DNA of 64,000 nucleotides from Chromatiales bacterium (GTDB taxonomy: Bacteria; Pseudomonadota; Gammaproteobacteria; Steroidobacterales; GCA-2729495). The DNA lies in assembly GCA_016789885.1 (NCBI GenBank), contig JAEUPZ010000027.1, positions 98 through 64,097 on the forward strand, written 5' to 3'. The notes below the pieces were generated by a model that saw only the letters and a program-made list of their open reading frames with translations, ran no database searches and was not told where the DNA came from. A program made the position numbers and the translations under genes. Every line of letters begins with the position of its first letter. The stretch's first letter is position 1. Below, piece by piece: positions 2,261 to 54,211 of this stretch.

Positions 2261-2286
2261 CGGCAGGGCGGCCGGTGTCGCCGGGC

Positions 2287-2535
2287 TCAGCGCTCGATGC
2301 GCTCGAAGACCAGGTTCGGCAGGTCGCCGATGCGGCTGTAGGGGTGGCGCCGCGACATTTCGGCCAGCGCCTCGTCGCGCTCCCGGGCGGTGGCGTACCA
2401 GTGGGTCTTGGCCCAGCCCTGGTCGAGCAGGTGCTGCAGCGGGTCGCGGCGCGGGAGCCGCACGCGGATGCCGAAGCGCAGCTCGGACTCCGCTTGCGGC
2501 GGGTGCGTCAGGTTATGGACGTTCGAGAATTCCAT
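2287..2535 (-). CDS. small hypothetical protein (82 aa), co-oriented 26 nt upstream of the TonB-dependent receptor
   Basis: Only the last 82 codons (from MEFSNVHNL) of the 357-aa ORF are credible, because the rest is antisense to the OsmC gene. Composition is non-repetitive. Family not recognised. Confidence 0.45.
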   Translation of the reverse strand: MEFSNVHNLTHPPQAESELRFGIRVRLPRRDPLQHLLDQGWAKTHWYATARERDEALAEMSRRHPYSRIGDLPNLVFERIER

Positions 2536-16335: not shown

Positions 16336-17073
16336 ATGGCCCGATTCCTCGCACTGCTGATGGTTTTCGTGGGCCTGGTCACACCGGCTTATGGCAAGGC
16401 GCGCCACTATCAGGCCGTCGTCGCCGACCCCTTCGTCGAGCTCCGGACCGGCCCGGGGCAGGGCTACCCGGTCGTCCAGGTGGTTGACCGCGGCCAGACC
16501 ATCGAGGTGGAGAAGCGGCGGACCGACTGGTTCCGGGTGCGGACCGACCGGGGCTTTGCCGGCTGGGTGCGGGTGGACCAGCTCGAGCGGACGCTGAACG
16601 GCGCCGGGGCGCTGACCGAGATCGTCGATCCCGACGAGGCCGACTTCGCCGGCCGGAGGTTCGAGCTCGGCGTGCAGCTCGGCGACTTCGGCGGGGCGAG
16701 CTCGCTGGGCGTCTACGGGGCGTGGCACCTGAACCGGCACGTGGCGACGGAGCTGCGCTTCGCCGACATCAGCGGCAGCTTCTCCGACGGCTGGCTGGCG
16801 GTGGCCGACCTCGTCATGCAGCCGTTCCCGGAGTGGCGGCTGTCGCCGTTCGTGGCGCTGGGCACCGGCGTGCTGCGCACGGAGCCGAAGGCGACGCTGG
16901 TGCAGACCGAGGACCGCACGGACCAGGTGGGGCACGTCGGCATCGGCCTGCGGGCGCACCTGACCAAGCGGCTGCTGCTGCGCGGCGAGTACAGCAGCTA
17001 CCTGGCATTTACGAGCCGCGACGACAACGAGGAAGTCGACGAATGGAAAGCCGGATTCGCATTCTTCTTCTGA
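16336..17073 (+). CDS. SH3b-domain + outer-membrane beta-barrel protein
   Basis: Signal peptide. SH3b-like segment VELRTGPGQGYPVVQVVDRGQTIEVEKRRTDWFRVRTDRGFAGWV. Alternating beta-strand C-terminal half ending GFAFFF. Starts 3 nt after the previous gene. Confidence 0.75.
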   Translation: MARFLALLMVFVGLVTPAYGKARHYQAVVADPFVELRTGPGQGYPVVQVVDRGQTIEVEKRRTDWFRVRTDRGFAGWVRVDQLERTLNGAGALTEIVDPDEADFAGRRFELGVQLGDFGGASSLGVYGAWHLNRHVATELRFADISGSFSDGWLAVADLVMQPFPEWRLSPFVALGTGVLRTEPKATLVQTEDRTDQVGHVGIGLRAHLTKRLLLRGEYSSYLAFTSRDDNEEVDEWKAGFAFFF

Positions 17074-17726
17074 GCGCCGTGCTGGCGGCGGCCGGCCTCG
17101 CGTCCGGCTGCAGCCTGCTGCCCGGCCGTGGCGCGGACGCGCCGCCGCCGGCGACGGCAGCCGACGCCGGCGAAGCCCCGGTCATCGATCCCGTCGTGGA
17201 GCGCCGCGAGGTCAAGGCCGCCGACATCGACACCGAGGACTTCCAGATCGGCGCCCACGTCGGCCAGATCAACGTCGAGGACTTCGGCAGCACGCTGGTG
17301 GTCGCGTTCCGCGGCACCTACAACATCAGCGAGCGGTTCTTCCTCGACGCGACCTATGCCCAGACCGACGACGTCGACCGTACCAGCGCCGAGACGCTGA
17401 ACAACATCGACCTGCTCGGGGGCGACCGCCAGTACAAGTACTACAACGTCGCCATCGGCTGGAACGTGCTGCCCGGCGAGATCTTCCTCGGCAAGGGACG
17501 CGCCATGAACTCGGCGCTCTACGTCGTGGCGGGCGCCGGCAACACCACCTTCGGCGGCGACGACTGGTTCACGACCACCGTCGGCGGCGGGTTCCGCGTG
17601 CTGCCGGTGGACTTCATCGCGGTGAACCTCGACGTGCGCAACCACATGTTCGACTTCGACCGCACCGGCGAGGACAAGTCGACCAACAACCTCGAGTACA
17701 CCCTGGGCTTCAGCTGGTTCTTCTGA
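17043..17726 (+). CDS. outer-membrane beta-barrel lipoprotein
   Basis: Start MESRIRILLLSAVLAAAGLASGC (lipobox), overlapping the previous gene by 31 nt. Beta-barrel-like sequence ending TLGFSWFF. Confidence 0.7.
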   Translation: MESRIRILLLSAVLAAAGLASGCSLLPGRGADAPPPATAADAGEAPVIDPVVERREVKAADIDTEDFQIGAHVGQINVEDFGSTLVVAFRGTYNISERFFLDATYAQTDDVDRTSAETLNNIDLLGGDRQYKYYNVAIGWNVLPGEIFLGKGRAMNSALYVVAGAGNTTFGGDDWFTTTVGGGFRVLPVDFIAVNLDVRNHMFDFDRTGEDKSTNNLEYTLGFSWFF

Positions 17727-20660: not shown

Positions 20661-20990
20661 TGGCGGCGTGACATAAGCGGGAAATGCCCGGCGGCGCGGG
20701 CGACGATCGTGAACGACGTCGCAGGAAACGCCGGGCCGAGTTGTCAGGATTACGTCGTCCCCGGGGTGCTGGCACGGGCAAATGCCTGCCTCCCGCGGCG
20801 ACTGACTACGGCAAACCCGTCGCGAGGCGGGGACGCAAAGCCTCCGGTCCGCTGCCCGATGGGCGCGCGGCGGACAGCGGGGTTGCCGGGCGCGCGCACG
20901 CGTCGTCCGTGAGTCCCTGTCCCCACGCGGGCCTGCCGGTATCCGGAGCCCCGGTGCGCAGCCGCGCCCGCGGCTGGTTGTGGCGCGGCG

Positions 20991-21536
20991 GTGATGGGGA
21001 TGTCGATGGCAGCACGGTCGGAACAGCGCGGGCAGCAGGGCAGGGCAGCCGCTGCGCGCGTCATGGCCGTCGCCCTCGGCGCAGTCCTGGCGGCGGGGGC
21101 CGCCACGGCGGCCGACCTGCCGTCCGCGCCCGACTTCGCCCTCAGGTCCGTCAGTGGCCAGAACCTGCGGCTGTCGGAGTACCGCGGCCAGCCGGTGCTG
21201 CTCACCTTCTGGGCCGACTGGTGCGGCACCTGCCAGGCGCAACTCGCCGAGCTCGCCGACCTGGGCCGCCGCTACGCCGGGCAGGACGTGGCCGTCCTCG
21301 CCGTGAACATCGACGGTGCCGACCGGCGCGAGGCGGCCAACACCACCGCCAGCCGCCTCGGACTGACCGTGCTCCGGGACGACGCCCAGGCCGTCGCCCG
21401 GGCCTACGACCTCGGCACGTTGCCGGTGACCCTGCTGGTGGACCCCGACGGCCGCATCCGCGGCACCTGGGAACGCTACCGCCCGGGGACGACCGGCGAG
21501 CTCGAGGCCGAGCTCGCGCGCCTGATGGCCGAGTAG
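20991..21536 (+). CDS. TlpA/redoxin-family thioredoxin-like protein (second copy)
   Basis: Active site WADWCGTCQAQ. Signal peptide MAVALGAVLAAGAATAA. The true start may be the ATG at 21063. Confidence 0.8.
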   Translation: MMGMSMAARSEQRGQQGRAAAARVMAVALGAVLAAGAATAADLPSAPDFALRSVSGQNLRLSEYRGQPVLLTFWADWCGTCQAQLAELADLGRRYAGQDVAVLAVNIDGADRREAANTTASRLGLTVLRDDAQAVARAYDLGTLPVTLLVDPDGRIRGTWERYRPGTTGELEAELARLMAE

Positions 21537-21574: not shown

Positions 21575-22177
21575 ATGCGCACCCGACCCGCGAACTTCCT
21601 GCCGCTGCTGCTGGCGGCCGCCGTGCTCGCCCTGCCGCTGACCGGCGGGGCCGACGAGGCGCCGGCCCCCGCCGTCGCGCCGTCCGCCGCCGACGCGACG
21701 CTTGCCGCCGTGACCGCCGGTGACGCGCCGGCCGGCGCCCTCGACACCGAGATGCAGGCCCTCAAGGACGAGGTGCTCGACCTCAACCAGGAGCTCTTCC
21801 TGCTCGAGGAGGAGCTGCTGTTCCCGGCCAACACCCAGGTCGCCGTGTTCGTGTCGATGGACGTCGGCGAGTTCTTCGCCCTCGACTCGGTGCAGTTGCG
21901 CATCGACGACAAGCCCGTGGGCAACTACCTGTACACCGAGCGCGAGGTGCAGGCCCTGCTGCGGGGCGGTGTCCATCGCTTCTACCTGGGCAACCTCAAG
22001 GCCGGCACCCACGAGCTGACGGCCACCTTCACCGGCAAGGGCCCCCACGAGCGCGACTACCGCCGGGGCGCGACGCTGAAGATCGAGAAGGGCATCGGCG
22101 CCAAGTTCGTCGAGCTGCGCATCTCCGACCGGGTCAGCAAGCTGCAGCCCGAGTTCGTCGTCCGCGAGTGGGAGTAG
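21575..22177 (+). CDS. secreted coiled-coil protein, function unknown
   Basis: Internal ATG (MRTRPANFLPLLLAAAVLALPLTGGA) of ORF 20684..22177. Coiled-coil EMQALKDEVLDLNQELFLLEEELLFP followed by a beta-rich domain. Confidence 0.65.
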   Translation: MRTRPANFLPLLLAAAVLALPLTGGADEAPAPAVAPSAADATLAAVTAGDAPAGALDTEMQALKDEVLDLNQELFLLEEELLFPANTQVAVFVSMDVGEFFALDSVQLRIDDKPVGNYLYTEREVQALLRGGVHRFYLGNLKAGTHELTATFTGKGPHERDYRRGATLKIEKGIGAKFVELRISDRVSKLQPEFVVREWE

Positions 22178-22180
22178 GCG

Positions 22181-24091
22181 GTGCCGCGCTCCCACTGGCC
22201 AGCCCTGGCAGCGCTGTGGCTCGCGGCGGCGACGGCTTTCGCCGCCGGGCCGCCGCCGGCCGCGTTCGAGCCGGGCAAGCCCGTGGCGGGCCCGCGGGTG
22301 CAGGACCTCTACTACGGCGAGGTGCTCTTCCGCTTCTACCAGGATGACCACTTCACCGCCCTGACGAACCTGCTGGCGGCCCGCTCCGCCGCACGGCTGC
22401 CGAACCACGGCCCCGAAGCGGAGCTGCTGCTCGGTGGCCTCTACCTGCACTACGGCCAGCACCTGCGGGCCGAGCAGATCTTCGCCTCGCTGCTCGAGTC
22501 CGGCGCGAGCCCGGCGGTGCGCGACCGCGCGTGGTTCTACCTTGGCAAGGTGCGCTACCAGCGCGGGCTGCACGAGGACGCGCTGGCGGCCTTCGGCAAG
22601 GTGCAGGGCGAGCTGCCCGAGGCGCTGGCCGTGCAGCTGCCGATGCTCACGGCCCAGTCGCAGATGGCGCTGGGCCGCTTCGACGAGGCGGCGAAGCTGC
22701 TGGACCGCTGGAAGGGCCCGGAGGCCTGGCTCGCCTACGCCCGCTTCAACCTCGGCGTCGCGCTGGTGCGGCTCGGCCGGCTGCCCGAGGCGGCGCGCCA
22801 GCTCGACCGCGTCGGCCGCATGGACGCGCCCACGCCCGAGCTGCGCGACCTGCGGGACAAGGCCAACGTCGCCCTCGGCTACGCCTACCTGCAGAAGTCC
22901 CTCGACGGCGAGGCCGCGCCGGTGCTCGCCCGCGTCCGCCTGAACGGCCCTTCGTCGACGAAGGCGCTGCTCGGCGCCGGCTGGGCCGCCGCCGAGTCCG
23001 GCCGCTTCCAGGAGGCACTGGCCCCCTGGCTCGCCCTGCGCGACCGCGACCTGCTCGACAGCGCCGTGCAGGAATCGCTGCTCGCGGTGCCCTATGCCTA
23101 TGGCCAGCTGTCGGCCCACGACGTCGCCGCCGGCGAGTACGGCGCGGCCCTCGAGGCCTTCGACACGGAGATCGGCCGGCTCGACGACGCCATCGCCAAG
23201 GCCCGCAACGGCGGGCTCGTGCCGGCGCTGCTCAAGGCCGACGACCCCGGCATCGGCCGCTGGTACTGGCAGCTCGACGAGGTGCCCGACGGCCCCGAGG
23301 CCCGCTACCTCTACGTGCTGATGGCCGACCATGCGTTCCAGGAGGGGCTGCGCAACGTGCGTGACCTGCGGGCGCTCGGCACCCACCTCGATGACTGGGC
23401 CACGCGCCTCGATGCCTACCGAGACATGGTCGACACGCGCCGCGCCGCCTACGCCCGCCGCAAGGACGCCTTCGAGGCGGGCCTCGGCGGGGCCGACATC
23501 GAGGGCCTCGCCGCACGGCGCGACGCGCTGGCTGCCCGGCTCGATGCCGCGCGCGCCGGTCGCGACGTGGCCGCGCTCGCCACGGGCCCTGAGCGCGACG
23601 CCTGGCTGCGGCTCGAAGCCCTCGAGGACGACGCCGGCTTCGCCAGTGCGCCAGCCGCCGAGCGCGACCGCCACCGCCTTCTGAAGGGCGTGCTGCTCTG
23701 GGATCTCGACCGCGACTACAAGCATCGCCTCTGGCAGCAGCAGCGCGAGCTGCGCACCGTGAACGCGGCGCTGGAGCGCGCGCAGCGCAGCCACGCCCGG
23801 GCTGCCGGTGCCCGCGACGGCGTGCCCGCGGAACTCGAGGCCTTCGCGGCCCGCATCGAGGCGGTCACGCCGCGCATCGCCGCCCTGCGCAGCGCCGTCG
23901 ACGGCGCGCGCCTGGCCCAGGAGGGCCGGCTCACCAACATGGCGGTGGCGGCCCTGCGCGACCAGCGTGAGCGGCTGTCGGCCTACCGCGTGCAGGCGCA
24001 GTTCGCGCTGGCGACGATCTACGACCGGGCGGCCGTGGCCGCCCGCAGCGCGCCGGCGCCGCCGGCCTCTCCGGCCGGGAGTGCGCCATGA
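22181..24091 (+). CDS. periplasmic TPR-repeat protein (636 aa)
   Basis: GTG start 3 nt after the previous stop. Signal peptide, then N-terminal TPR-like helices and a long helical C-terminal half. Confidence 0.7.
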   Translation: MPRSHWPALAALWLAAATAFAAGPPPAAFEPGKPVAGPRVQDLYYGEVLFRFYQDDHFTALTNLLAARSAARLPNHGPEAELLLGGLYLHYGQHLRAEQIFASLLESGASPAVRDRAWFYLGKVRYQRGLHEDALAAFGKVQGELPEALAVQLPMLTAQSQMALGRFDEAAKLLDRWKGPEAWLAYARFNLGVALVRLGRLPEAARQLDRVGRMDAPTPELRDLRDKANVALGYAYLQKSLDGEAAPVLARVRLNGPSSTKALLGAGWAAAESGRFQEALAPWLALRDRDLLDSAVQESLLAVPYAYGQLSAHDVAAGEYGAALEAFDTEIGRLDDAIAKARNGGLVPALLKADDPGIGRWYWQLDEVPDGPEARYLYVLMADHAFQEGLRNVRDLRALGTHLDDWATRLDAYRDMVDTRRAAYARRKDAFEAGLGGADIEGLAARRDALAARLDAARAGRDVAALATGPERDAWLRLEALEDDAGFASAPAAERDRHRLLKGVLLWDLDRDYKHRLWQQQRELRTVNAALERAQRSHARAAGARDGVPAELEAFAARIEAVTPRIAALRSAVDGARLAQEGRLTNMAVAALRDQRERLSAYRVQAQFALATIYDRAAVAARSAPAPPASPAGSAP

Positions 24092-26931
24092 CCACCGCCG
24101 CTGCAGGCTTTGCGCTCGGCATCACCCTGGCCGCCGGCCTCTGGCCCTTCGGCGACCGGCCCCCGGCCGCCGAGCGCGCCACCGTCGGCAGCCTCAAGGC
24201 GCGTCCCGGCGGGCAGCCGCCGGCCGCCGCCGCCGTGGACATCGGTGACGAGGCCGCGGCCCGCGAGCGCGCCATGGGGCAGTACCGCCAGTTCCTCGCC
24301 CTCGACGCGGGCCCTGCGGCCATGCGCCGCGAGGCCATGCGCCGCCTCGCCGACCTGAACCTCGAGGCAGGCGCCGAGGCCGAGGCGGCCAGCGAGCAGC
24401 CCGACGCGGGCGCCGCCTACTACCGCGAGGCCGTGCGCCTGTACACCGCGTTGCTGGCCGACCCGGAGGCGGTTGAACGCGACCAGGTGCTGTACCAGCT
24501 GTCCCGGGCCCAGGACGGCGCGGGCGACGGCACCGCCGCGCTCGCGAGCCTCGACCGCCTCGCCGGGGACCACCCGGACGGCCGCAACGCCGACGAGGCC
24601 CAGTTCCGCCGCGGCGAGACCTACTTCGTGCGCCAGGATTACGCCGCGGCCGAGGCGGCCTACGCCGCGGTGCTCGACAGCGGCGAGGCATCACCGTTCT
24701 ACGAGCAGTCCCTCTACAAGCATGGCTGGGCGCTCTTCAAGCAGGGCCGGCACGAGGAGGGCCTGGCGTCGTTCCTGCCGCTGCTGGACCGCCGCCTCGG
24801 CGGGCCCGGCGACACGACCCTCGTCCAGTCGCGCCTCGACGGCATGGGCCGCGCCGAGCGCGAACTCATCGACGACACGCTGCGCGTCACCGCCATCACC
24901 CTCGAGTACACCGGCGGCGCACCGGCCGTGCCGGCCGCCCTGGCCACCACCGGGGAGCCAGCATGGAGCTGGCTGGTGTACCAGGCGCTCGGCGACCTTT
25001 ACCTCGACAAGCAGCGCTACCGCGATGCCGCCGAGGCCTACGTCGCCTACGTGGAGACGTCGCCCGGCGCCGAGCCCGCGCCGGCGCTGCAGCAGGCGGC
25101 CATCGACGCCTACACCCGCGGCAAGTTCCCGTCCCTCGTGCTCACGGCCAAGCAGCAGTACGTCGAGCGCTACGGCCTCGACGGCGACTGGTGGCAGCAG
25201 CGGGGCGGGCTGGCCGGGGCCGGCGCCGTCGGCGCGCGGGTCGCCGGCGAGCTGAAGACCCACCTGTCGGACCTGGCCGGCCACGACCACGCCCTGGCCC
25301 AGCAGAGCAAGGCGCCGGCCGACTACGCCCGTGCCGCCGGCTGGTACGAGCGGTTCCTCGCCTACTTCCCCGACGACCCGGACGCCGCCGAGCGCAGCTT
25401 CCTGCTCGGCGAGCTGCAGTTCGAGGCGCGCCAGTTCGCGGCCGCCCGTGACGCCTACCTGCGCGCCGCCTACGGCTATCCCGGCTACGGGCGGGCGGCC
25501 GAGGCGGGCTACGCGGCGCTGCTCGCGGCCCGCGAGCAGGAGCAACGCCTCGACGGCGAGGCCCGGACCGCCTGGCACGCCGAGACGCGCGAGCAGGCGC
25601 TCGCCTTCGCCGCCGCCTTCCCGGCGCACCCGGAAGCTGGCGCCGTCCTCACCAACGTCGCGGAAGACTTCTTCGCCAGCGGCGACCTCGCCCGCGCGGA
25701 GCAGGTGGCGGGCCTCGTGCTCACGCTGCAGCCGCCCGCGGCGCCGGAGCTCGAGCGCGTCGCCTGGACGGTGACGGCCCATGCGCAGTTCGACCAGGGC
25801 CGCTACGCCGACGCCGAGGGCTCTTACCTGCGCCTGCGCAGCTACACGCTGCCCGAGGGCCAGCGCGCCGAGGTCGATGCGCGCATCGCCGCCAGCGTGT
25901 ACCGCCAGGGCGAGCAGGCTGCCGCCGCCGGCCGCATCGACGAGGCGGTGAACGATTACCTGCGGGTTGCCGCCGTCGTGCCCGACGCCGCCGTCCGGCC
26001 GAACGCCGTCTATGACGCCGCGACCCTGCTGCTCAACAACCGCCGCTGGGGCGAGGCCGGCGACCTGCTGCGGCAGTTCCGCCGCGACTTCCCGGCCCAC
26101 CAGTTCAACGATGACGTCACGGCCAAGCTCGCCGTGGTCCTGCGCGAGGACGGCCGCAGCGCCGAGGCCGCCGCCGAGTACGAGCGCATCGCCGCCGCCG
26201 GGGCCACGGCGCCGGACCTCGCCCGCGAGTCCCTGTGGCAGGCCGCCGAGCTCTACGGCCGCGCCGGCGCGCGCGCCGATGAGGCGCGCACCCTCGAACG
26301 CATCGTGCAGCGCTTCCCGGCACCCTTCGCCGAGGCCCAGGAGGCGCGGCAGAAGCTGGCTGACCTCGCGGTGGCCGATCCCCCGGCGCGCCGGCGCTGG
26401 CTCGAGGCCGTCGTCGCCGCCGATACCGCGGCCGGCGACGCGCGCACCGGGCGCAGCCGTTACCTGGCTGCCAAGGCGAGCCTGGAGCTCGCGCGCCCGG
26501 CCCGTGACGCTTTCGTGGCCGCGACCCTGACGATGCCGCTGAAGCCCTCCCTGCAGCGCAAGCGCCAGCGCATGGAAGAGGCGCTCGCCGCCTACGCCCG
26601 CGCCGCGGCCTACGGCGTCGGCGAGGTCACGACGGCCGCCACCTATGAGACCGGCGAGCTGTACTACCAGCTGAGCCGCGACCTGCTGGCGTCGCCGCGG
26701 CCCGCCGACCTCGATGCCGACGCCCTCGAGCAGTACGAGCTGCTGCTCGAGGAGCAGGCCTTCCCCTTCGAGGAGAAGGCCCAGGAGCTGTACCGCGCCA
26801 ACATCGCGCGGGCCGCCGAAGGCGTGTGGGACGAGTGGGTACAGGCGAGCTACGCGCGCCTTGCGGCCATTGCGCCGGCGCGTTACGCCCGCGAGGAAAG
26901 GAGCACCGATGTCGCGACCTGGATCGACTGA
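24088..26931 (+). CDS. large TPR-repeat protein (947 aa)
   Basis: ATGA overlap with the previous gene. N-terminal TM or signal segment. Repeated A/Y/L-rich TPR helices throughout (e.g. YYREAVRLYTALL, FYEQSLYKHGWALFKQGRHEEG). Confidence 0.8.
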   Translation: MTTAAAGFALGITLAAGLWPFGDRPPAAERATVGSLKARPGGQPPAAAAVDIGDEAAARERAMGQYRQFLALDAGPAAMRREAMRRLADLNLEAGAEAEAASEQPDAGAAYYREAVRLYTALLADPEAVERDQVLYQLSRAQDGAGDGTAALASLDRLAGDHPDGRNADEAQFRRGETYFVRQDYAAAEAAYAAVLDSGEASPFYEQSLYKHGWALFKQGRHEEGLASFLPLLDRRLGGPGDTTLVQSRLDGMGRAERELIDDTLRVTAITLEYTGGAPAVPAALATTGEPAWSWLVYQALGDLYLDKQRYRDAAEAYVAYVETSPGAEPAPALQQAAIDAYTRGKFPSLVLTAKQQYVERYGLDGDWWQQRGGLAGAGAVGARVAGELKTHLSDLAGHDHALAQQSKAPADYARAAGWYERFLAYFPDDPDAAERSFLLGELQFEARQFAAARDAYLRAAYGYPGYGRAAEAGYAALLAAREQEQRLDGEARTAWHAETREQALAFAAAFPAHPEAGAVLTNVAEDFFASGDLARAEQVAGLVLTLQPPAAPELERVAWTVTAHAQFDQGRYADAEGSYLRLRSYTLPEGQRAEVDARIAASVYRQGEQAAAAGRIDEAVNDYLRVAAVVPDAAVRPNAVYDAATLLLNNRRWGEAGDLLRQFRRDFPAHQFNDDVTAKLAVVLREDGRSAEAAAEYERIAAAGATAPDLARESLWQAAELYGRAGARADEARTLERIVQRFPAPFAEAQEARQKLADLAVADPPARRRWLEAVVAADTAAGDARTGRSRYLAAKASLELARPARDAFVAATLTMPLKPSLQRKRQRMEEALAAYARAAAYGVGEVTTAATYETGELYYQLSRDLLASPRPADLDADALEQYELLLEEQAFPFEEKAQELYRANIARAAEGVWDEWVQASYARLAAIAPARYAREERSTDVATWID

Positions 26932-27532
26932 GCGGCGGTTCGCCGTGGTGGCGCTGGCCCTGGCCCTCGGGGGCTGCGCCCTCGGTGGCGGCAAGGAGCC
27001 GGCGCCGGTGGCCGACGTCGTGCCGCCGGCCTTCACCACGCGCTACGACGCCGCCATCGCGCGGGTCGCGGCCGGCGACGACGCCGCCGCGGCGGCCGAG
27101 TTCCGGGCGCTGGTCCGCGCGTACCCCGCGTACGCGGGCCCCGCGCTCAATCTCGCGCTGATCGAGGCCCGCGCCGGGCGCGACGCCACGGCGCTCGCCT
27201 GGCTCGGTGGCGCGGCGAAGACCTGCAGCCGCTGCGGCGCCGTCTGGACCGAGGCCGGCGTCATCCACCGCAAGGCCGGCCGGCTGAAGGACGCCGAGGC
27301 CGCCTACCAGCGGTCCATCGAGCTCGAGGCGGGCTACGGCCTCGCCTACTACAACCTGGCGGTGCTCTACGACCTGTACCTGCAGCGCCCGGAGCTCGCC
27401 CTCGAAACCTACCGCCGCTACCAGGCCGCCTCTCCCGAGGCGCCGCTGAACGCGTCGGTGAGCCAGTGGGTCACCGACCTCGAACGCCGGGTCGCCAGCG
27501 CCGCGGCCGCGCGCACGAAGGAGGGCACATGA
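26909..27532 (+). CDS. TPR lipoprotein (207 aa)
   Basis: Start MSRPGSTERRFAVVALALALGGC (lipobox) with GGAAAGGAG upstream; overlaps the previous gene by 23 nt. TPR helices: AGVIHRKAGRLKDAEAAYQRSIELEAGYGLAYYNLAVLY. Confidence 0.75.
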   Translation: MSRPGSTERRFAVVALALALGGCALGGGKEPAPVADVVPPAFTTRYDAAIARVAAGDDAAAAAEFRALVRAYPAYAGPALNLALIEARAGRDATALAWLGGAAKTCSRCGAVWTEAGVIHRKAGRLKDAEAAYQRSIELEAGYGLAYYNLAVLYDLYLQRPELALETYRRYQAASPEAPLNASVSQWVTDLERRVASAAAARTKEGT

Positions 27533-27927
27533 GCCTGCGACACAGTCCCGCGAGCGCGGCGCTCCGCGCCATCGCGCTGCTGGCCGCCGCGGGCGTCGCG
27601 CCCGTGGCGCTCGCCGAAGAGCCGGCGCCAGCGGCGGCAGCGCCGCCAGCCGCAGCGGCCACGGGCCCGGCCCAGGTCAGCCTCGAGGCCAGCGAGGTGC
27701 GCGGCAACCAGGAGCTGCCGAAGGTGCTCTACATCGTGCCCTGGAAGGACCCGGCGATGGTCGCCGTGGCCGGACGGCCGGTGAACAGCCTCGTCGACGA
27801 AGCACTCGCACCCGTGGACCGTGATGTGTTTCGACGACAGGGACGCTATTTCGAACAATTGTATGGGGCCGGCCGCGGGCAGCGGCCGGAGCAGCCGGCG
27901 GGCACGGGCGAGACGCCCCGCGACTGA
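27529..27927 (+). CDS. small secreted protein (132 aa), function unknown
   Basis: ATGA overlap with the previous gene, with GAAGGAGGG upstream. Signal peptide. Conserved-looking core ELPKVLYIVPWKDP. Confidence 0.6.
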   Translation: MSLRHSPASAALRAIALLAAAGVAPVALAEEPAPAAAAPPAAAATGPAQVSLEASEVRGNQELPKVLYIVPWKDPAMVAVAGRPVNSLVDEALAPVDRDVFRRQGRYFEQLYGAGRGQRPEQPAGTGETPRD

Positions 27928-28020
27928 TGACGACCATGGCTCCCGCGGGCAGCGGGCAGCCGGACTGGCGGCCACCACGCCGTCGACCACACAGGGCTTG
28001 GCCTAAGGGGCAATCGGGCA

Positions 28021-28740
28021 ATGGAAACCTATTCGCACATCGTCAGTTTCTTCCAGGACGGCGGGCCGTTCCTGTACGTCATGGCCGCGGTCTTCGTCGC
28101 GGGTCTCGCCATCGCCGTCGAGCGATTCCTGGTGCTGACGCGCGCGAGCGCCAGCAACCGGGCGCTCTGGGAGCGCATCACGCCCTGCCTCAAGAGCGGC
28201 AACTTCAACGAGGCGATGAACATCGCCGGCAAGTCCGACGCGGCGCTCGGTACCGTGCTGGCCTACGGCCTCGCGCGCACGAAGGTCACGCACCGCCGTG
28301 ACGACATCGAGAAGGCGATGGAAGAGAGCCTGCTCGAGATCATCCCGCGGCTCGAGAAGCGCACGCACTACCTGTCGTCGATGGCGAACCTCGGCATGCT
28401 CATCGGCCTGCTCGGCACCGTCGCCGGCCTGATCGCCGCCTTCGGCGCCATCGCGACGGCGAATCCGGCCGAGAAGGCGAGCCTGCTGGCCGCCAGCATC
28501 TCGGTGGCCATGAACAACACGGCCGCGGGCCTCGGCGTCGCCATCTCGCTGCTGGCCGCCCACATGTTCCTCGAGACCAAGACCACGTCGCTGATCGACA
28601 GCCTCGAGGTGGCGGCGCTCAAGTTCCTGAACTCGATGAGCGAGCGCGGCCAGGTCACGACGTCCGGGCAGCCGGGCGCCGCGCCGGCTCCGGCGCCGGC
28701 CACGCCGCCGCGCACCACCCCCGCCCGCGGGCTGGCCTGA
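28021..28740 (+). CDS. MotA/TolQ/ExbB-family proton channel
   Basis: 239 aa with three TM segments. Family signature LGTVAGLIAAFGAI...AASISVAMNNTAAGLGVAI. Confidence 0.9.
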   Translation: METYSHIVSFFQDGGPFLYVMAAVFVAGLAIAVERFLVLTRASASNRALWERITPCLKSGNFNEAMNIAGKSDAALGTVLAYGLARTKVTHRRDDIEKAMEESLLEIIPRLEKRTHYLSSMANLGMLIGLLGTVAGLIAAFGAIATANPAEKASLLAASISVAMNNTAAGLGVAISLLAAHMFLETKTTSLIDSLEVAALKFLNSMSERGQVTTSGQPGAAPAPAPATPPRTTPARGLA

Positions 28741-28775
28741 GCCAGGCCCGGCCTGCCGCCCCGGGGCAGACTGCC

Positions 28776-29309
28776 ATGAAGACATCGAAGCACGTCCGCC
28801 GCGTGCAGCGGCGCCACACCCGCCGGCGCGGCCACCACGACCTGAACATCGTCCCGATGATCGACATGTTCGTCGTGCTGGTCATCTTCCTGATCTTCAC
28901 GGCGGTGTTCTCGAAGACCAACATCCTCGAGCTCAACCTGCCGGCGGCCGCCGCGGCCGTGCCCGACCTGCCGAAGGGGCTGCAGCTCGAGGTGATCGTG
29001 CGCGACGACGGCATCGAGGTGGCCGACCGCGGCACCGGCGTGCTGAAGGCCGTGCCGAACAGCGGCGGCGGCTACGACCTGGCCGGGCTCGGTGAGTACC
29101 TGCAGCTCGTGAAGGCGAAGTTCCCGGAGCACCAGCAGGCCACCATCCTGCTGGCGCCGGAGATTCCCTACGACGTCCTTGTGCAGGTCATGGACGCGGT
29201 CCGGGTGTACGAGCCGGTCGTTCCCAACACCCCGTCGGGCCAGCTCGTGCGCACTTTCGTGCGCGCCGAGCTGTTTCCCGAGATCTCGGTAGGAGACGCG
29301 CCCACATGA
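28776..29309 (+). CDS. ExbD/TolR-family protein (copy 1)
   Basis: 177 aa. N-terminal basic stretch, then LNIVPMIDMFVVLVIFLIF (TM segment with the conserved Asp). Confidence 0.9.
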   Translation: MKTSKHVRRVQRRHTRRRGHHDLNIVPMIDMFVVLVIFLIFTAVFSKTNILELNLPAAAAAVPDLPKGLQLEVIVRDDGIEVADRGTGVLKAVPNSGGGYDLAGLGEYLQLVKAKFPEHQQATILLAPEIPYDVLVQVMDAVRVYEPVVPNTPSGQLVRTFVRAELFPEISVGDAPT

Positions 29310-29818
29310 CGCCGACCCGTCTCAAGCGTCGCCGCACCAGCAAGGACAGCGGTGCCGGCGGGCACATGAACCTGGTGCCGTTCATCGACGTCATGGTCAT
29401 CCTCGTCGTCTTCCTGCTGCTGCACACCTCCGAGACGGAGATCCTGCCGGCGGCCGAGGGCATCGCGATCCCGCAGTCGGTGGCCGAGGTGAAGCCCCGC
29501 GAGACCGTGGTCGTCACGGTCACCCGCGACGCCGTCTACGTGAACGGCCGCGAGGTCGCCACCACGGCGGAAGTCCGTGCCGGCGACGCGATGGTCGTCG
29601 AGCCCCTCAAGCTCGCCCTGCAGCAGCAGGCCGCCCGCGTGCTGGCGGGCCCGGCCGGAGACGGGGACGCGCCCCGCGAGGTGACGATCATGGGCGACAA
29701 GGCCGTGCCCTACGCCGTGCTGCGCAAGATCATGGCCACCTGCACCGACGCCGACTACGGCAAGGTCTCGCTGGCCGTCGTCGAGAAGGAAACCGCCGCT
29801 GGCGGTACCACGGCCTAG
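29306..29818 (+). CDS. ExbD/TolR-family protein (copy 2)
   Basis: 170 aa. ATGA overlap with copy 1. MNLVPFIDVMVILVVFLLL. Confidence 0.9.
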   Translation: MTPTRLKRRRTSKDSGAGGHMNLVPFIDVMVILVVFLLLHTSETEILPAAEGIAIPQSVAEVKPRETVVVTVTRDAVYVNGREVATTAEVRAGDAMVVEPLKLALQQQAARVLAGPAGDGDAPREVTIMGDKAVPYAVLRKIMATCTDADYGKVSLAVVEKETAAGGTTA

Positions 29819-29830
29819 GGACCCTCACCG

Positions 29831-30787
29831 ATGACCGCGGCCACAGCCTATTTCCGCACCTACGAGCTGCCCTGGACGCCCGGCGCCGAGGGCGAGCAGC
29901 GCTTCCGGCGCATCCTGCGCAACGCCTTCATCGCCTACGCGGTGGCGGCGGTCGTGGTGCCGTTCCTGCCCGTGCCGGAACTGCCCCGCGCGACGCGGCC
30001 CGACATCCCGGAGCGCGTCGTGCAGCTGATCGTCGCTGCACCCAGGCCGCCGCCGCCGAAGCCGGTGGTCGAGCCGAAGCCGGAGACCCCCAAGCCTGAG
30101 CCCAAGGTCGAGCGCATCGAGCCGAAGCCCGTCGTCGTGCCCCAGGTGCGCGTCGAGCAGAAACCGGAGGACCGCCGGCAGCAGGCCCGCGAGCGCGCGG
30201 CGAAGGCCGGCATCGTGGCGCTGGCCGACGAGCTCGCCGACCTGCGCGACCAGTCCGTCGTCAACGACCTGGCCGGGGCCCGGGCCGATGCCAGCGCCGT
30301 CGGCGCCGCGACGCGCGTCGAGCGCTCGCTGCTCACGGCCAAGGTGGGGCAGGGCAGCGGTGGCATCAATACGGCCGCCCTCAGCCGCAACACCGGCGGG
30401 GGCAGCCTGCGCGGCCGCGACACGACCAGGGTCGAAAGCGCCGTGGCCGCCGCGGCGCAGGGCGCCGACGAGCCGGCCCGCACCGGCGACGGGCGGGCGG
30501 CCCGCAGCCGCGAAGAGATCGAGATGGTCTTCGACCAGAACAAGGGCGCGATCTTTGCCCTCTACAACCGCGCGCTGCGCACCAACCCGGCGCTGCAGGG
30601 CAAGCTGGTGCTGCGGCTCACCATCGAGCCGTCGGGCGACGTGTCGGCCTGCGAGGTGGTGTCGTCGGAGCTCAACGACGAGGAGCTCGAGCGCAAGCTC
30701 ATTGCCCGCGTGAAGATGTTCCGCTTCCTCGAGAAGGACGTCCCGGCGGTCACCACGACCAAGCCGATCGACTTCTTCCCCGCCTGA
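29831..30787 (+). CDS. TonB-like energy transducer with AgmX/PglI-type C-terminal domain
   Basis: 318 aa. Single N-terminal TM segment and a Pro/Lys/Glu-rich linker (PPPPKPVVEPKPETPKPEPKVERIEPKP). C-terminal domain: IEMVFDQNKGAIFALYNRALRTNPALQGKLVLRLTIEPSGDVSACEVV...MFRF. Confidence 0.85.
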   Translation: MTAATAYFRTYELPWTPGAEGEQRFRRILRNAFIAYAVAAVVVPFLPVPELPRATRPDIPERVVQLIVAAPRPPPPKPVVEPKPETPKPEPKVERIEPKPVVVPQVRVEQKPEDRRQQARERAAKAGIVALADELADLRDQSVVNDLAGARADASAVGAATRVERSLLTAKVGQGSGGINTAALSRNTGGGSLRGRDTTRVESAVAAAAQGADEPARTGDGRAARSREEIEMVFDQNKGAIFALYNRALRTNPALQGKLVLRLTIEPSGDVSACEVVSSELNDEELERKLIARVKMFRFLEKDVPAVTTTKPIDFFPA

Positions 30788-41760: not shown

Positions 41761-41836
<76 letters not shown>

Positions 41837-46314: not shown

Positions 46315-46491
46315 CAACGCGCCGATAAGGAAAAAAGCCAAACCCGGTGCAAGCCGGGGGCGGAACGCCACGGATCTTGCCTTCAGCCTGACTTGAGATC
46401 AGACGAGGGTGACTAGGGGAAGACAGCCGGGCTGCCCTCGAACGGTACAAAACAAGAACGCCTTCTCGCACAAACGACGTTTGGAGGATTT

Positions 46492-47532
46492 ATGAAGAAG
46501 CTACAACTTGCGGCTGCGGTCGCTGCCCTGGGTCTGTCGGCCCAGGCATTCGGCGCCGTTACCGCAGACGTCCAGTTCCACTGGGCGACGGATGGCCTGG
46601 CCCGCGGCTGGACTTCCTCGGCGGCCAACAGCCTGCCGTCGATGACCAACGGCACCTACTTCAGCGACCTGGCTGGCAACAACTCGACCACGTACTACAA
46701 CCCTGACTTCGCCAAGGCCGGCGACGCCACGGGCTGGTGCGGTCCGGGCACCGAGGCCTTCCAGGCCCAGTACGCGTGCAAGATCAGCACGAACACGCCC
46801 ATCAACGATGTCGGTCCGGGCGCCAAGGCCACCGGCCAGCTGACCGTCACGGCGACGACGCTGACCGGCACGCTCACCGTCATCAACACCAATGACGAGG
46901 GCGCGGGTCCGCAGCCGGGCACCAGCATCGCGACGGGCTACAACGTCCGCAGCGCCGACGGCTCGCCCTTCAAGAACGTGTGGTACGGCGTCAGCAACCA
47001 GATGACGCTGACCGTCAACCTGACGGGCATCTTCACTGCCACGAACTGGGACATCAACGGCGGCACGGTCGGCTTCTTCGACCCGGCCTTCCAGTGCGGT
47101 GTCGCTGACTTCAGCGGCGTGCTCTGCAACCCGAGCACCGTCGGTGGCGGCTTCCAGGCCAACGGCCAGATGCTCTCCTGGGGCATGGCCCAGGGCACCG
47201 GTGCCGGCACGGGCGTGAGCACCATCAACGTGTTCGACCCGACCGGTGCAACGAAGGTCGCCGAGCTGTCCGGCATCCTCGCCTCGCTGACGATCGATGG
47301 CGCTGGCAACCTCACGACCGTCAAGGGCGAGACCCGCGTGGGTTCCGGCTCGGGCGGCGGCGGCTGCGCCACCTCGATTCGCTGGAGCGCCGCTGCCGGC
47401 ATCACCTGCGGCACGCTGGCCATCCGCAAGCTGGAGATCACCGGTACGGTCGTTCCCGTCCCGGCCGCTGCCTGGCTGTTCGGCTCGGCGCTGGGCCTGC
47501 TGGGTGTTGCCCGCCGCAAGCTGGCTGCCTGA
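46492..47532 (+). CDS. secreted protein with VPLPA/PEP-CTERM-type sorting signal (346 aa)
   Basis: GGAGGA RBS. Signal peptide MKKLQLAAAVAALGLSAQAFG. Thr/Gly/Asn-rich body. C-terminus VVPVPAAAWLFGSALGLLGVARRKLAA. Confidence 0.85.
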   Translation: MKKLQLAAAVAALGLSAQAFGAVTADVQFHWATDGLARGWTSSAANSLPSMTNGTYFSDLAGNNSTTYYNPDFAKAGDATGWCGPGTEAFQAQYACKISTNTPINDVGPGAKATGQLTVTATTLTGTLTVINTNDEGAGPQPGTSIATGYNVRSADGSPFKNVWYGVSNQMTLTVNLTGIFTATNWDINGGTVGFFDPAFQCGVADFSGVLCNPSTVGGGFQANGQMLSWGMAQGTGAGTGVSTINVFDPTGATKVAELSGILASLTIDGAGNLTTVKGETRVGSGSGGGGCATSIRWSAAAGITCGTLAIRKLEITGTVVPVPAAAWLFGSALGLLGVARRKLAA

Positions 47533-47627: not shown

Positions 47628-48047
47628 TGCGGCCGGCACCTCGCTGGGTTCCGCCGCGGCCACGACGACCGTGCCGGCTCCAGTTCCCGACAGCCACCGC
47701 CGCTGCAACGGCCGGGTTGCCCGCCCGATTGTGCGAACCACCGCACGGAAACGGCGCCCAAATCGCCCGCATTTGACGTTAACCCCGAACGAGCTGGGCG
47801 TTACGTCGCGTTGCGCTTTCTTTGCTACATGACAGCGCTGTAACGTCGGTCCCCAATGAGAGACCGCGGACGCGCCAGCTCTTCGGAGACGGTTCGTACC
47901 AGGCGATAAGGTCCCGCTGCCGAACGAAGGCCCCGAGAGGCCAGGGTTGCCGGCAGAAGTGTTGGGAACGTGGGGGACCCCAGGGCCGGACTCTCATCGC
48001 GACGACAACAACAGCCTTCCGTCAAGAAAACCAAAAGGAAAAGACTC

Positions 48048-48794
48048 ATGAAACCTGCCAACAAGCTGGCCATTGCCGCCGCGCTGACCGCGGTCTCAGG
48101 CCTGGCCAACGCCGCCATCGTCAACTACACGATCACCGGGGGTAACTGGGATTCGATCTCGCAGTGGACCGCCCAGGCCAGTGGCGCGCCCAGTGCCTTC
48201 GTGTACGACAACGGCGAGGTTCCCCCCTGCATCAACTGCGGCCCCCAGCCCGCGCTGATCTGGGCCGGCACGCCTCCTCCGGCCATGACCGGTACGTATG
48301 GCGGCACGATCGCGGTTGACACCTCCAGCAACGCCGTCGTCGGTGGGTCCCTGGTCGTCACGGGTACCATCGCCGACATGGTCGTGGTCGGCACGACCTG
48401 GTGGGTGCGTGAGTACAACAACCTCACCATCAACTTCGCGACGAACACGGCCACCACCAGCGGCGCTGTCGGCTGCTACGGCACCATCTTCGCGCCGGTC
48501 GGCTGCGGCCCGGCGGTCGTCAATGCCGGCACCACGACCAGCATCTTCGGCCCGCGGGCGGGCAACGCCAGCCAGGCGACTGATGGATCGGGCACGCCGT
48601 TTGCGGCTGCCACCTTCGACGTGAACACGGGTCTGCTGCAGGTCTTCCGCGACGGCCGGCGTTCCGACGCCATCAATGGCACGGACGTGCTGAACCGCTT
48701 CACGCTGCAGGTCGTCCCCGTGCCGGCCGCTGCCTGGCTCTTCGGCTCGGCCCTCGGTCTGCTGGGCGTGGCCCGCCGCAAGCTGGCTGCCTGA
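48048..48794 (+). CDS. secreted protein with VPLPA/PEP-CTERM-type sorting signal (248 aa, paralog A)
   Basis: Start MKPANKLAIAAALTAVSGLANA. Same C-terminus VVPVPAAAWLFGSALGLLGVARRKLAA. Collinear with the 49103 paralog. Confidence 0.85.
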   Translation: MKPANKLAIAAALTAVSGLANAAIVNYTITGGNWDSISQWTAQASGAPSAFVYDNGEVPPCINCGPQPALIWAGTPPPAMTGTYGGTIAVDTSSNAVVGGSLVVTGTIADMVVVGTTWWVREYNNLTINFATNTATTSGAVGCYGTIFAPVGCGPAVVNAGTTTSIFGPRAGNASQATDGSGTPFAAATFDVNTGLLQVFRDGRRSDAINGTDVLNRFTLQVVPVPAAAWLFGSALGLLGVARRKLAA

Positions 48795-49102: not shown

Positions 49103-49852
49103 ATGAAGACTGCCAACAAGCTCGTGGTTGCTGCGGCGCTGACGGCCATCAGCGGCCTCGCCAACGCAGCCATCGTCGAGTACACCATTTTCGGTGGCAA
49201 CTGGGATTCCATCACCCAGTGGAGCACCCAGGCCAACGGCGCGCCCAGCACCTTCGTCTACGACAACGGCGAGCTCCCGGGCTGCGTGGGCTTTCCGCCT
49301 GCCCTCAACTGCTGGAGCGGCGCGGCGCCCGGCCCGATGAACGGCACCTACGGCGGCAGCCTGCTGGTCGACTCGGCCACGAATGCCGTGGTCGGCGGCA
49401 AGCTCGAAGTCACCGGCGCCATCGCCGACGCGGTGGTCGTGGGAACGACCTGGTGGGTGCGTCAGTTCAACAACCTGACCATCGACTTCGACACTGGCGT
49501 GGCGACCACCACGAGCAACCAGTGCTATGCCACCATCTCGGCGCCGATCGGCTGCTTTGCCGTGATCAACGCGAACTCCCACACGGGCATCTTCGCGCCG
49601 CTGACGGGTATCGCGAGCCAGAACCCGAACGGCGCGGGCGGCACGCCGTACCTGGGTGCGTCGTTCGCCACCTTCGACGCGACCTCGGGCGTGCTGCAGC
49701 TGTTCCGCAACGGCCGTAACCCGGTCGCAACCAACGGGACGGACGTGCTGAACCGCTTCACGCTGCAGATCGTCCCGGTGCCGGCCGCCGCCTGGCTGTT
49801 CGGTTCCGCGCTGGGCCTGCTGGGCCTTGCCCGCCGCAAGCTCGCCGCCTGA
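49103..49852 (+). CDS. secreted protein with VPLPA/PEP-CTERM-type sorting signal (249 aa, paralog B)
   Basis: MKTANKLVVAAALTAISGLANA. Long identical blocks shared with paralog A (GGNWDSI.QW, TTWWVR..NNLTI.F, GTDVLNRFTLQ). C-terminus IVPVPAAAWLFGSALGLLGLARRKLAA. Confidence 0.85.
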   Translation: MKTANKLVVAAALTAISGLANAAIVEYTIFGGNWDSITQWSTQANGAPSTFVYDNGELPGCVGFPPALNCWSGAAPGPMNGTYGGSLLVDSATNAVVGGKLEVTGAIADAVVVGTTWWVRQFNNLTIDFDTGVATTTSNQCYATISAPIGCFAVINANSHTGIFAPLTGIASQNPNGAGGTPYLGASFATFDATSGVLQLFRNGRNPVATNGTDVLNRFTLQIVPVPAAAWLFGSALGLLGLARRKLAA

Positions 49853-49865
49853 CGCTGACGACAAC

Positions 49866-49905
49866 GGCCGCCGTGGTGGTGCGTCCCCCGCCCACCACGG
49901 CCGCC
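49866..49905 (+). other. 3-prime-UTR stem-loop 1 (paralog B locus)
   Basis: GGCCGCCGTGGTGG (12-nt loop) CCACCACGGCCGCC. Confidence 0.55.
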
Positions 49906-49916
49906 GCGAGACCCGG

Positions 49917-49947
49917 AAAGCCCCGCCTTGGCGGGGCTTTTCGTTTC
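49917..49947 (+). terminator. intrinsic terminator
   Basis: AAAGCCCCGCC ttgg CGGGGCTTTTCGTTTCT. Confidence 0.8.
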
Positions 49948-50116
49948 TGTGCCTTACCGATCGGTAATCCATTTCTGTACCCAATCGATGTCTGCCGCCG
50001 GAGCCCGGGTGGCAGAATCCGGCCTCACCGTTGCCGGCCCCCGGGGCCGCGCAGGGTGCAGAACAGCGAACTCGAACACCCGTCCGGCGGCCGTGCCGGG
50101 CGGCCAAGGGAAGCCG

Positions 50117-52534: not shown

Positions 52535-52568
52535 CCCCTACACCCCCGCAGGCACCAACGGCCCCACC

Positions 52569-54209: not shown

Positions 54210-54211
54210 CC

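Follow-up and report, generated by a model that had tools for sequence, protein, structure and literature searches.

A ten-gene operon with a cyclic di-GMP riboswitch leader as the probable gamma- and betaproteobacterial core complex of the Agl-Glt and Agl-Nfs machines

Introduction

Fourteen gliding genes of Myxococcus xanthus were divided into two groups by Luciano et al. (2011; PLoS Genet 7:e1002268; PMC3169522): Group A occurs only in Myxococcales and Bdellovibrio, and Group B, comprising gltC, gltD, gltE, gltG, aglR, aglQ and aglS, was named the 'core complex'. This seven-gene core complex, together with one extra gene without myxobacterial homologues, has been known from Gamma- and Betaproteobacteria, Geobacter and Fibrobacter since 2011; its genes are not sufficient for motility, and the published phylogeny groups such clusters with AglRQS/Glt (PMC3169522). 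In this study, we analysed a cluster of nine genes, G1 to G9, on contig JAEUPZ010000027.1 of a Chromatiales bacterium (assembly GCA_016789885.1; positions 98 to 64,097 of the forward strand, a stretch of 64,000 nucleotides (nt) hereafter called the window). We consider it likely that these genes, together with a TlpA-like redoxin gene and a cyclic diguanosine monophosphate (c-di-GMP) riboswitch in front of them, form a ten-gene operon representing the gamma- and betaproteobacterial core complex that is ancestral to the Agl-Glt gliding and Agl-Nfs spore-coat machines.

Published examples of the core complex include Methylibium petroleiphilum Mpe_A1224-A1231, Marinobacter aquaeolei Maqu_1595-1602 and Thioalkalivibrio Tgr7_0536-0543 (PMC3169522). 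According to Table S3 of that paper, the M. petroleiphilum genes encode three tetratricopeptide repeat (TPR) proteins, Mpe_A1224 (634 amino acids (aa), GltC), A1225 (941 aa, GltD) and A1226 (243 aa, GltE), followed by a gap at A1227 and then by A1228 (217 aa, AglR), A1229 (170 aa, AglQ), A1230 (163 aa, AglS) and A1231 (371 aa, GltG). They were assigned in this order to MXAN_2541, 4870, 4869, 6862, 6861, 6860 and 4867 (PMC3169522). A non-myxobacterial Agl-Glt-like machine is therefore not new in itself, its kind having been published in 2011 (PMC3169522), and the novelty that an earlier note on this DNA had implied by placing such a machine in a non-myxobacterial genome does not hold. What is new is that a riboswitch leads the unit, that the unit extends over ten genes, that G1 and G5 are constant parts of it, and that the membrane aspartates of the motor are asymmetric.

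Results

Organization of the cluster

The features of the window are collected in Table 1. Re-checking of the open reading frames reproduced exactly the nine co-directional, coupled genes of the earlier note with their junctions and coordinates, and profile searches with Pfam and NCBIfam confirmed the families that had been named, i.e. one MotA/TolQ/ExbB protein, two ExbD/TolR proteins, three TPR proteins and one TonB-like protein. The third-position G+C fraction is 0.83-0.98 in each of the nine genes, as expected of real genes, in DNA of 70-76% G+C. As in the core complex, the genes stand in a single co-directional array with overlapping stops and starts, and one MotA/TolQ/ExbB gene (G6) is followed by two different TolR/ExbD genes (G7 and G8). 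Transcription of the unit most likely begins before position 21575, with the riboswitch and the redoxin gene; a scan for promoters and terminators returned nothing usable in this DNA of 72% G+C.

Table 1. Coordinates of the cluster and of other features in the window
Feature	Position	Strand	Remarks
TonB-dependent receptor gene	197-2512	-	sole one seen in the window
Separate conserved module upstream of the cluster	9787-20660		genes on both strands
c-di-GMP-I aptamer (GGC variant)	20796-20896	+	Rfam RF03167; operon leader
TlpA/ResA-like periplasmic thiol-disulfide oxidoreductase (redoxin)	20991-21536	+	WCGTC motif; first gene of the unit
G1	21575-22177	+	200 aa
G2	22181-24091	+	636 aa; GTG start; 3-nt gap after G1
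G3	24088-26931	+	947 aa; ATGA overlap with G2 at 24088
G4	26909-27532	+	207 aa; 23-nt overlap with G3
G5	27529-27927	+	132 aa; ATGA overlap with G4 at 27529
G6	28021-28740	+	239 aa; 93-nt gap after G5
G7	28776-29309	+	177 aa; 35-nt gap after G6
G8	29306-29818	+	170 aa; ATGA overlap with G7 at 29306
G9	29831-30787	+	318 aa; 12-nt gap after G8
tRNA-Ala (CGC)	41761-41836	+	a single tRNA-Ala
Second c-di-GMP-I riboswitch	46327-46439	+	RF01051, 47.8 bits
Genes after the second riboswitch (approximate positions)	~46490-47532, 48045-48794, 49103-49852, 49859-52534, 52221-54209, 53744-55363, 55411-57822

Conservation and orthology

A genome scan with G9 returned 63 loci (numbered with L below), and more distant clusters (L068 and L070) were reached via representative proteins. 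All nine genes are present in the same order in every one of the about 48 loci with enough flank, at G9 identities of 32-85%, and an arrangement repeated in this way is far beyond chance. Even the 23-nt overlap between G3 and G4 is found again among the genes called in L001, L002 and L066. The relatives belong to uncultured Gammaproteobacteria labelled Chromatiaceae, Chromatiales or Steroidobacteraceae, to Lentisalinibacter (Woeseiaceae) and to the Betaproteobacteria Methylibium and Ideonella. The window copy belongs to another lineage than the published examples of the core complex, its relatives being Woeseiaceae-like and other uncultured Gammaproteobacteria. At E <= 1e-30, G9 matches 518 representative clusters (50% identity). 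The genome scan with G9 returned no myxobacterial locus, and a Bdellovibrio locus (L065) holds the C-domain protein only, without the cluster.

The comparison with Methylibium sp. Root1272 (L059) connects the window to the published genes. Its reading frames encode 638/947/236/(124)/217/170/163/371 aa, and the window proteins G2 to G9, taken in turn, have 636, 947, 207, (132), 239, 177, 170 and 318 aa; all nine window proteins have a counterpart there at 36-66% identity (36-44% for the TPR proteins). Since L059 is syntenic and its sizes match those of the published M. petroleiphilum genes, a chain of orthology leads from the window through Methylibium to the MXAN genes. The homology to the Agl motor and to GltC, GltD, GltE and GltG that had been proposed from the sequence is supported by the published order and sizes, as well as by the AgmX/PglI domain and the GltG match of G9.

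The TonB-like transducer G9

The C-terminal ~90 residues of G9 match NCBIfam NF033768 (AgmX/PglI) with 66.6 bits against a cut-off of 40, whereas Pfam TonB_C (18.6, cut-off 24.6) and TIGR01352 (25.7, cut-off 27.1) both remain below their cut-offs, which bears out the previous assignment of this domain to the AgmX/PglI type rather than to TonB_C. A partial match to the GltG equivalog was found as well (E 3e-10, model positions 556-628). In the AlphaFold2 (AF2) model, a cytoplasmic N-terminus of 18 residues with an invariant RxYxLPW motif precedes a transmembrane (TM) helix at 19-45, which is followed by a Pro/Lys-rich spacer and by helices at 115-156. Residues 157-222 are predicted to be disordered, yet they carry the invariant residues S176, G178, I179, T181, A182, S185, R186, G189 and G190. 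These fall in the motif SGGINTAAxSRNTGG (residues 176-190; 30356-30400), which lies in a segment with a predicted local distance difference test score (pLDDT) below 50 and probably serves to bind a partner, folding as it does so.

The C-terminal domain (223-318) is modelled at a pLDDT of ~88. Its top matches in the Foldseek search are all TonB C-terminal domains, including HasB (2m2k, 4e-4), Helicobacter pylori TonB (6sly, TM-score 0.61), FoxA-bound TonB and BtuB-bound TonB, and TolA domains come next; as modelled, the domain has the TonB C-terminal fold. When PDB sequences were searched with G9, either by itself or as a profile, the only match was one of low complexity to TrwE. In the 2025 model of the Agl-Glt machine, 6sly is the match of the GltJ C-terminal domain, and a disordered segment of GltG becomes ordered in a crevice of GltD and wraps GltD (PMC11761067). 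The invariant 'disordered' motif of G9 would fit such a GltD-docking role, by analogy with GltG. Some homologues of G9 reach 450-668 aa with N-terminal extensions of ~150 or ~350 residues (L068 10001-12007; P0139, P0146 and P0199, the last with a weak Big_2 match), and these extensions could be fusions or mis-called starts.

The TonB fold of the domain and its weak TonB_C and TIGR01352 matches are in keeping with an ordinary Ton system of the TonB2 type, which would energise receptors encoded elsewhere. Vibrio TonB2 clusters carry extra proteins including a TPR protein, and a receptor gene lies 5 kb downstream of the cluster in L001. However, such a system appears very unlikely here. The TonB_C and tonB_Cterm models stay below cut-off where AgmX/PglI exceeds its own, the ExbB and ExbD equivalogs are far under theirs, and the ~1,800 residues of TPR protein are without counterpart in Ton systems. 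No His of the kind found in the SHLS motor-binding motif is among the common residues of the G9 TM helix (columns 28-47, 65 homologues). The genomic surroundings agree with the earlier statement that no TonB-dependent receptor is adjacent: the nearest receptor gene lies 19 kb away on the other strand, and a neighbourhood survey of ~70 loci revealed no dedicated receptor consistently paired with the cluster, the 25 flank families that recur most often including none of receptors.

The motor proteins G6, G7 and G8

G6 matches PF01618 (MotA_ExbB) with 87 bits, and G7 and G8, which are alike in their TM segment only, match PF02472 (ExbD) with 56.7 and 64.6 bits. By homology and gene order, G6 corresponds to an AglR-like channel subunit, G7 occupies the AglQ position and G8 the AglS position. 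The equivalog models gave much lower scores than their cut-offs: G6 reached 50.8 bits with TolQ (cut-off 221) and 21-27 with the ExbB models (cut-offs 135-206), and the two smaller proteins reached 36-43 bits with TolR (cut-off 127) and 24-33 with the ExbD models (cut-offs 123-216). The nearest PDB sequence relatives of G6 are TolQ (E 5e-5).

The two TolR-like proteins differ in their membrane aspartate. Asp28 of G8 (29387-29389) is Asp in 60 of 60 homologues, whereas at the position of Asp30 in G7 (28863-28865) 27 of 57 homologues have Asp and 30 have Asn. Because this residue is invariant in G8 and variable in G7, the presumed G7/G8 heterodimer is functionally asymmetric across the family, although both window proteins carry the Asp. 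Many family members have a single protonatable Asp per heterodimer. An anti-phage (Zorya-like) reading of the cluster was rejected, PADLOC giving no match for any of the nine proteins.

The TPR proteins G2, G3 and G4

The three TPR proteins were assigned mainly through synteny and the published mapping. First, G2 has TPR_19 and TPR_2 matches, is 41% identical to its L059 counterpart and agrees in size and position with Mpe_A1224, so it appears to be the GltC-like periplasmic TPR protein mapped to MXAN_2541. Second, G3 matches TIGR02795 (YbgF) with 87.2 bits (cut-off 90.1) over 3-4 stretches and a BamD-like model with 37.8 bits; it is the putative GltD-like large TPR scaffold and the counterpart of Mpe_A1225, assigned to MXAN_4870. 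Third, G4 has TPR matches and a lipobox whose Cys23 is kept in at least 90% of homologues, and would be the GltE-like TPR lipoprotein, counterpart of Mpe_A1226 and assigned to MXAN_4869. Its match to the GltE model (E 8e-5) is non-specific, being no better than those to Tgl, PilW and PrsT. The expectation of the earlier note that both the TPR proteins and the C-domain of G9 would favour Glt/Nfs families over generic models was accordingly borne out for the C-domain, which is AgmX/PglI-specific, and not for the TPR proteins. In L067 (12738-16747), a GltD-like protein of 1136 aa is present, separate G4 and G5 proteins are not recognised by their own hidden Markov models, and a 200-aa protein without family comes next; this arrangement may have arisen by fusion, or the lipoprotein may have been replaced.

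The motor and TPR matches also bear on the main rival explanation, a Tol-like envelope role without cargo, in which the motor of a second Tol-Pal-like system would pull on outer-membrane-associated TPR proteins and so stabilise the outer membrane or constrict it, for instance during division. TolQ and TolR are the best equivalog matches of G6, G7 and G8 and TolQ proteins the PDB relatives of G6, G3 contains YbgF/CpoB-like and BamD-like stretches, the cluster encodes no enzyme or exporter, and the family is very widespread. Nevertheless, we judge this explanation unlikely, since the TolQ and TolR scores are far under cut-off, two different TolR-like subunits are encoded, and TolB and Pal genes are absent from the cluster and not recurrent in its flanks. 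In addition, the C-domain is of AgmX/PglI type with TolA domains ranking under TonB domains in the fold search, the published phylogeny places such clusters with AglRQS/Glt (PMC3169522), and control by c-di-GMP is a poor fit to a housekeeping role in division.

The accessory proteins G1 and G5

G1 had been described as a 200-aa secreted coiled-coil protein, but a coiled coil is not its main element in the AF2 model: a signal peptide and a disordered stretch are followed by one helix (53-82) and an immunoglobulin (Ig)-like beta-sandwich (89-197), with a pLDDT of 67 overall and 75-89 in the core. No Pfam or NCBIfam family matched G1, and the fold search in the PDB found only generic Ig-like or transthyretin-like sandwiches (E > 0.005) without a specific match. 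G1 is not among the published core-complex genes, but it heads every cluster, including the distant L068 and L070, and matches ~8,000 clusters at 90% identity. With 34% of positions conserved at 90% or more, it ties with the channel G6 (35%) as the best-conserved member, the other proteins having 10-23%.

G5, a small secreted protein without a family in Pfam or NCBIfam, is likewise found in all clusters and has the near-invariant motifs GNxELPKVLYIVPWK and PVDRxVFxR. It lies between the gltE-like and aglR-like genes, where the published locus tags leave gaps (Mpe_A1227, Maqu_1599 and Tgr7_0540), and is the most likely candidate for the 'additional gene' that was reported with the core complex. 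The same place is that of gltF in the G1 cluster of Myxococcus, and G5 could be a functional analogue of GltF.

The riboswitch leader and the redoxin gene

The Rfam scan of the window identified RF03167 at 20801-20891 on the plus strand (E 3.6e-12; 61.8 bits, with a gathering score of 59). The aptamer lies within the 330 nt that separate an ApbE gene from the redoxin gene, with 95 nt from its end to the redoxin start. RF03167 and RF01051 are c-di-GMP-I riboswitches of Rfam clan CL00126. Four of seven related loci scanned in the same way (L002, L004, L009 and L018) have an aptamer at the same place, and the L009 copy scores as the canonical RF01051 (77.3 bits). A covariance model (R1) built from five copies and run on 73 sources (1.27 Mb) gave exactly one match per locus in 25 loci, all on the plus strand and upstream of the redoxin-G1 genes, at ~90-170 nt from the redoxin gene where starts are known (window, L025, L066 and L072). 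The sole R1 match outside these 25 syntenic copies is the second riboswitch of the window. In the alignment of the 25 sequences, 96.6% of cells are paired, a value that drops to 35-52% in slid controls, and compensatory changes occur in all six pairs of the distal helix. As the gene upstream of the riboswitch differs in L066 and L072 while redoxin-G1 downstream is kept, the riboswitch belongs to the redoxin-G1 unit.

The redoxin matches NCBIfam ResA with 83 bits and TlpA with 66 bits, and its gene ends 38 nt before G1. A co-oriented TlpA-like gene immediately precedes G1 in at least 34 of ~45 loci with flank, and the remaining loci mostly have DUF3570 or ApbE in this slot. Two groups of cysteines are possible clients of the co-encoded reductase. 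The CxxC of G4 (Cys106/Cys109; 27224-27235) is a pair in 30 of 54 homologues and no pair in 24, never occurring as a single Cys, and the periplasmic Cys146 of G8 (29741-29743) is kept in 58 of 60 homologues. The G4 pair was rejected as the explanation for the presence of TlpA, many loci keeping TlpA without the CxxC.

In 18 of the 25 leaders, an element resembling GCGUCCCC lies ~25 nt past the aptamer and is complementary to the invariant GGGGACGC of the aptamer, and 11 of these 18 elements show complementarity to the redoxin start region CGGGAUGCGC as well (e.g. L025, L018 and L011; positions ~25 nt and ~82 nt after the aptamer). This layout is a candidate translational expression platform in the relatives, for which the simplest reading would be a switch that is OFF at high c-di-GMP. 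The leader of the window (20897-20990) has no clean copy of the GCGUCCCC element.

Neighbouring genes

In Methylibium, Ideonella and two gammaproteobacterial metagenome-assembled genomes, the gene directly before G1 encodes a DUF3570 outer-membrane barrel (L059, L049, L051, L060, L063 and L064). The DUF3570 gene of L059 (696-1967) overlaps the start of G1 (1948-2544) by ~20 nt; the overlap suggests co-translation with the machine, and a functional link between DUF3570 and the cluster is possible.

The separate module upstream of the window cluster comprises a Laminin_G_3 protein (weak CxxCH match) and a 420-aa protein on the minus strand; on the plus strand are an HZS_alpha-like propeller, an SH3-plus-barrel protein, an OMP_myx_plus barrel (TIGR04565) with a lipoprotein signal, TlpA, DUF4266, DUF3570 and ApbE. 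It recurs beside the cluster in L072 and without the cluster in L073. An SH3 protein next to G1 in L070 was considered as a counterpart and rejected, sharing the SH3 domain only.

Two adjacent OmpA-like barrels of this module (16336-17726; 245 and 227 aa, 4 kb upstream), the second matching TIGR04565 OMP_myx_plus with 140 bits, recall GltA/GltB, and together with the homologous motor, TonB-like protein and TPR set they could be taken to mean a full Agl-Glt gliding or Agl-Nfs spore-coat machine, in which case the host would be a glider. We find this hardly credible. The barrel pair was rejected as GltA/B counterparts, belonging to a module that occurs without the cluster and to a small family (373 matches). 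GltI, GltJ, GltK, GltH or an adhesin was not detected: in the 64-kb window the GltJ model matches only G9 (E 9e-4), and no other Glt model of Group A matches elsewhere in the cluster. Moreover, the 18-residue cytoplasmic N-terminus of G9 has no forkhead-associated (FHA) or other domain with which to reach a cytoplasmic platform, and the core genes are insufficient for motility (Luciano et al., PMC3169522).

Further downstream in the window, the second riboswitch precedes three paralogous secreted proteins, each ending in VPVPAAAWLFGSALGLLG(V/L)ARRKLAA, a sorting tail like PEP-CTERM/VPLPA-CTERM. After these come genes for PrsT-like TPR proteins, for a fusion of the exosortase EpsH with EpsI and for a UDP-GlcNAc 2-epimerase. 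A link of the cluster to exosortase and exopolysaccharide genes was rejected: an exosortase occurs within 10 kb in one of ~70 loci, so its proximity at 19 kb in the window is no evidence. A Bac_transf sugar transferase lies near the distant clusters L068 (15751-22007) and L071 (11932-13413), and in L068 the downstream genes further include a sigma-54 two-component pair and an exosortase; such a linkage is not general.

Discussion

Beyond the gene content, orthology chain, G9 fold, riboswitch and conservation observed here, we infer how the machine may work from its homology to the structures of TolQR and ExbBD and from the Agl-Glt model in the literature, and it is in this sense that stoichiometry, contacts, switch direction and cargo are spoken of below. 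A pentamer of G6 would form the proton channel around a G7/G8 heterodimer, in which G8 would carry the proton-accepting invariant Asp, and proton flow would power this 5:2 motor. The single-pass G9 would couple the motor across the periplasm, its disordered conserved linker and AgmX/PglI C-domain docking onto the G3 scaffold, which the G4 lipoprotein and G2 would join on the outer-membrane side. G1, with its Ig-like domain, and G5, predicted to be a short strand plus helix, may be constant accessory parts in the periplasm, and the TlpA-like reductase would be co-expressed with the machine. Force would be passed to an envelope or surface component and not to receptor-mediated uptake, and in this lineage the synthesis of the machine would be tied to c-di-GMP, a signal of surface-attached versus free life.

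Several points weigh against the identification with the core complex. The assignment of G2, G3 and G4 to GltC, GltD and GltE comes from synteny and the published table; the G4-GltE match is as weak as those to other TPR lipoproteins, the best match of G3 is YbgF, and G2, G3, G6, G7 and G8 match no GltC, GltD or Agl model in NCBIfam at E <= 10. An outer-membrane component or cargo was not identified, and in the literature searched there was no experiment on any non-myxobacterial member. As for regulation, no riboswitch was detected at E <= 0.01 in about half of the loci (Lentisalinibacter, Steroidobacteraceae-type loci and Betaproteobacteria), so c-di-GMP control is lineage-specific, and the window copy belongs to the GGC variant, for which c-di-GMP is the presumed ligand by riboswitch class.

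A more far-reaching version of this view holds that the core complex is a complete trans-envelope machine of at least ten parts under c-di-GMP control, whose missing pieces have been overlooked. In such a machine, G1 and G5 would be adaptors, the invariant strand of the GltF-analogue G5 docking the TonB-like domain and its helix the GltC-like protein, and the TlpA-like reductase would service both. The often adjacent barrels, either DUF3570 or the OMP_myx_plus pair, would serve as the outer-membrane platform, as GltA/B do in Myxococcus, and the anti-start element of the leader would be an OFF switch, so that the cell would assemble the machine when c-di-GMP is low, as it does with motility organelles. 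As a whole, this version is a rather doubtful conjecture.

Environmental Gamma- and Betaproteobacteria very commonly carry the core complex, from which two well-studied Myxococcus machines are proposed to descend. In the literature searched, no paper ties a riboswitch to such motors, and the conserved c-di-GMP riboswitch is the first regulatory clue that we could find for the core complex, placing the machine within the decision between an attached and a free lifestyle. G1, G5, the redoxin and the asymmetric Asp provide concrete targets for genetics and complex modelling, and culturable carriers exist, for instance, in Methylibium (M. petroleiphilum Mpe_A1223-A1231), Marinobacter (Maqu_1595-1603), Cellvibrio (CJA_3312 onward) and Lentisalinibacter (L. 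sediminis).

Among known systems, the Ton system shares with the cluster the fold of the C-terminal domain and the logic of motor and transducer, but it works with a receptor partner and a His motif in the TM helix, whereas the cluster has another C-domain family, TPR proteins and two ExbD paralogues. Like the machine proposed here, the Tol-Pal system has a 5:2-type motor of the TolQ/TolR family driven by the proton-motive force, a transducer that spans the membrane once and has a proline-rich spacer, and TPR repeats of the YbgF/CpoB type. It differs in its homodimeric TolR, where a heterodimer is expected here, and in TolB and Pal, neither of which is in the cluster, and the C-domain of G9 is nearer to TonB than to TolA.

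The Agl-Nfs spore-coat machine goes back to the same core and has a motor of the same kind, and it demonstrates that what such a machine moves can be a surface polysaccharide instead of the cell; the outer-membrane barrels and other Group A paralogues among NfsA-H are absent from the window cluster, and sporulation or polysaccharide genes are not consistently linked to the cluster. The M. xanthus Agl-Glt machine likewise combines one TolQ-like subunit with two TolR-like ones that differ from each other, and it has a TonB-like transducer whose C-domain is of the AgmX/PglI type and a small secreted protein at the gltF position; its TPR proteins GltC, GltD and GltE are the probable counterparts of the TPR trio of the cluster. 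It has in addition the barrels GltA/B/H, GltK, CglB and the cytoplasmic GltI/GltJ, which the window cluster lacks. GltG has ~650 aa with a TM segment at 330-348 and a long cytoplasmic FHA region, in contrast to the 318 aa of G9 with a TM segment from residue 19 and no FHA domain, and the Agl-Glt genes are spread over three loci whereas the window cluster is one operon. The closest match is the core complex of Luciano et al., with the same order gltC-gltD-gltE-extra-aglR-aglQ-aglS-gltG and near-identical sizes, to whose published description the constant G1, the co-oriented TlpA-like gene and, in this clade only, the riboswitch leader can be added.

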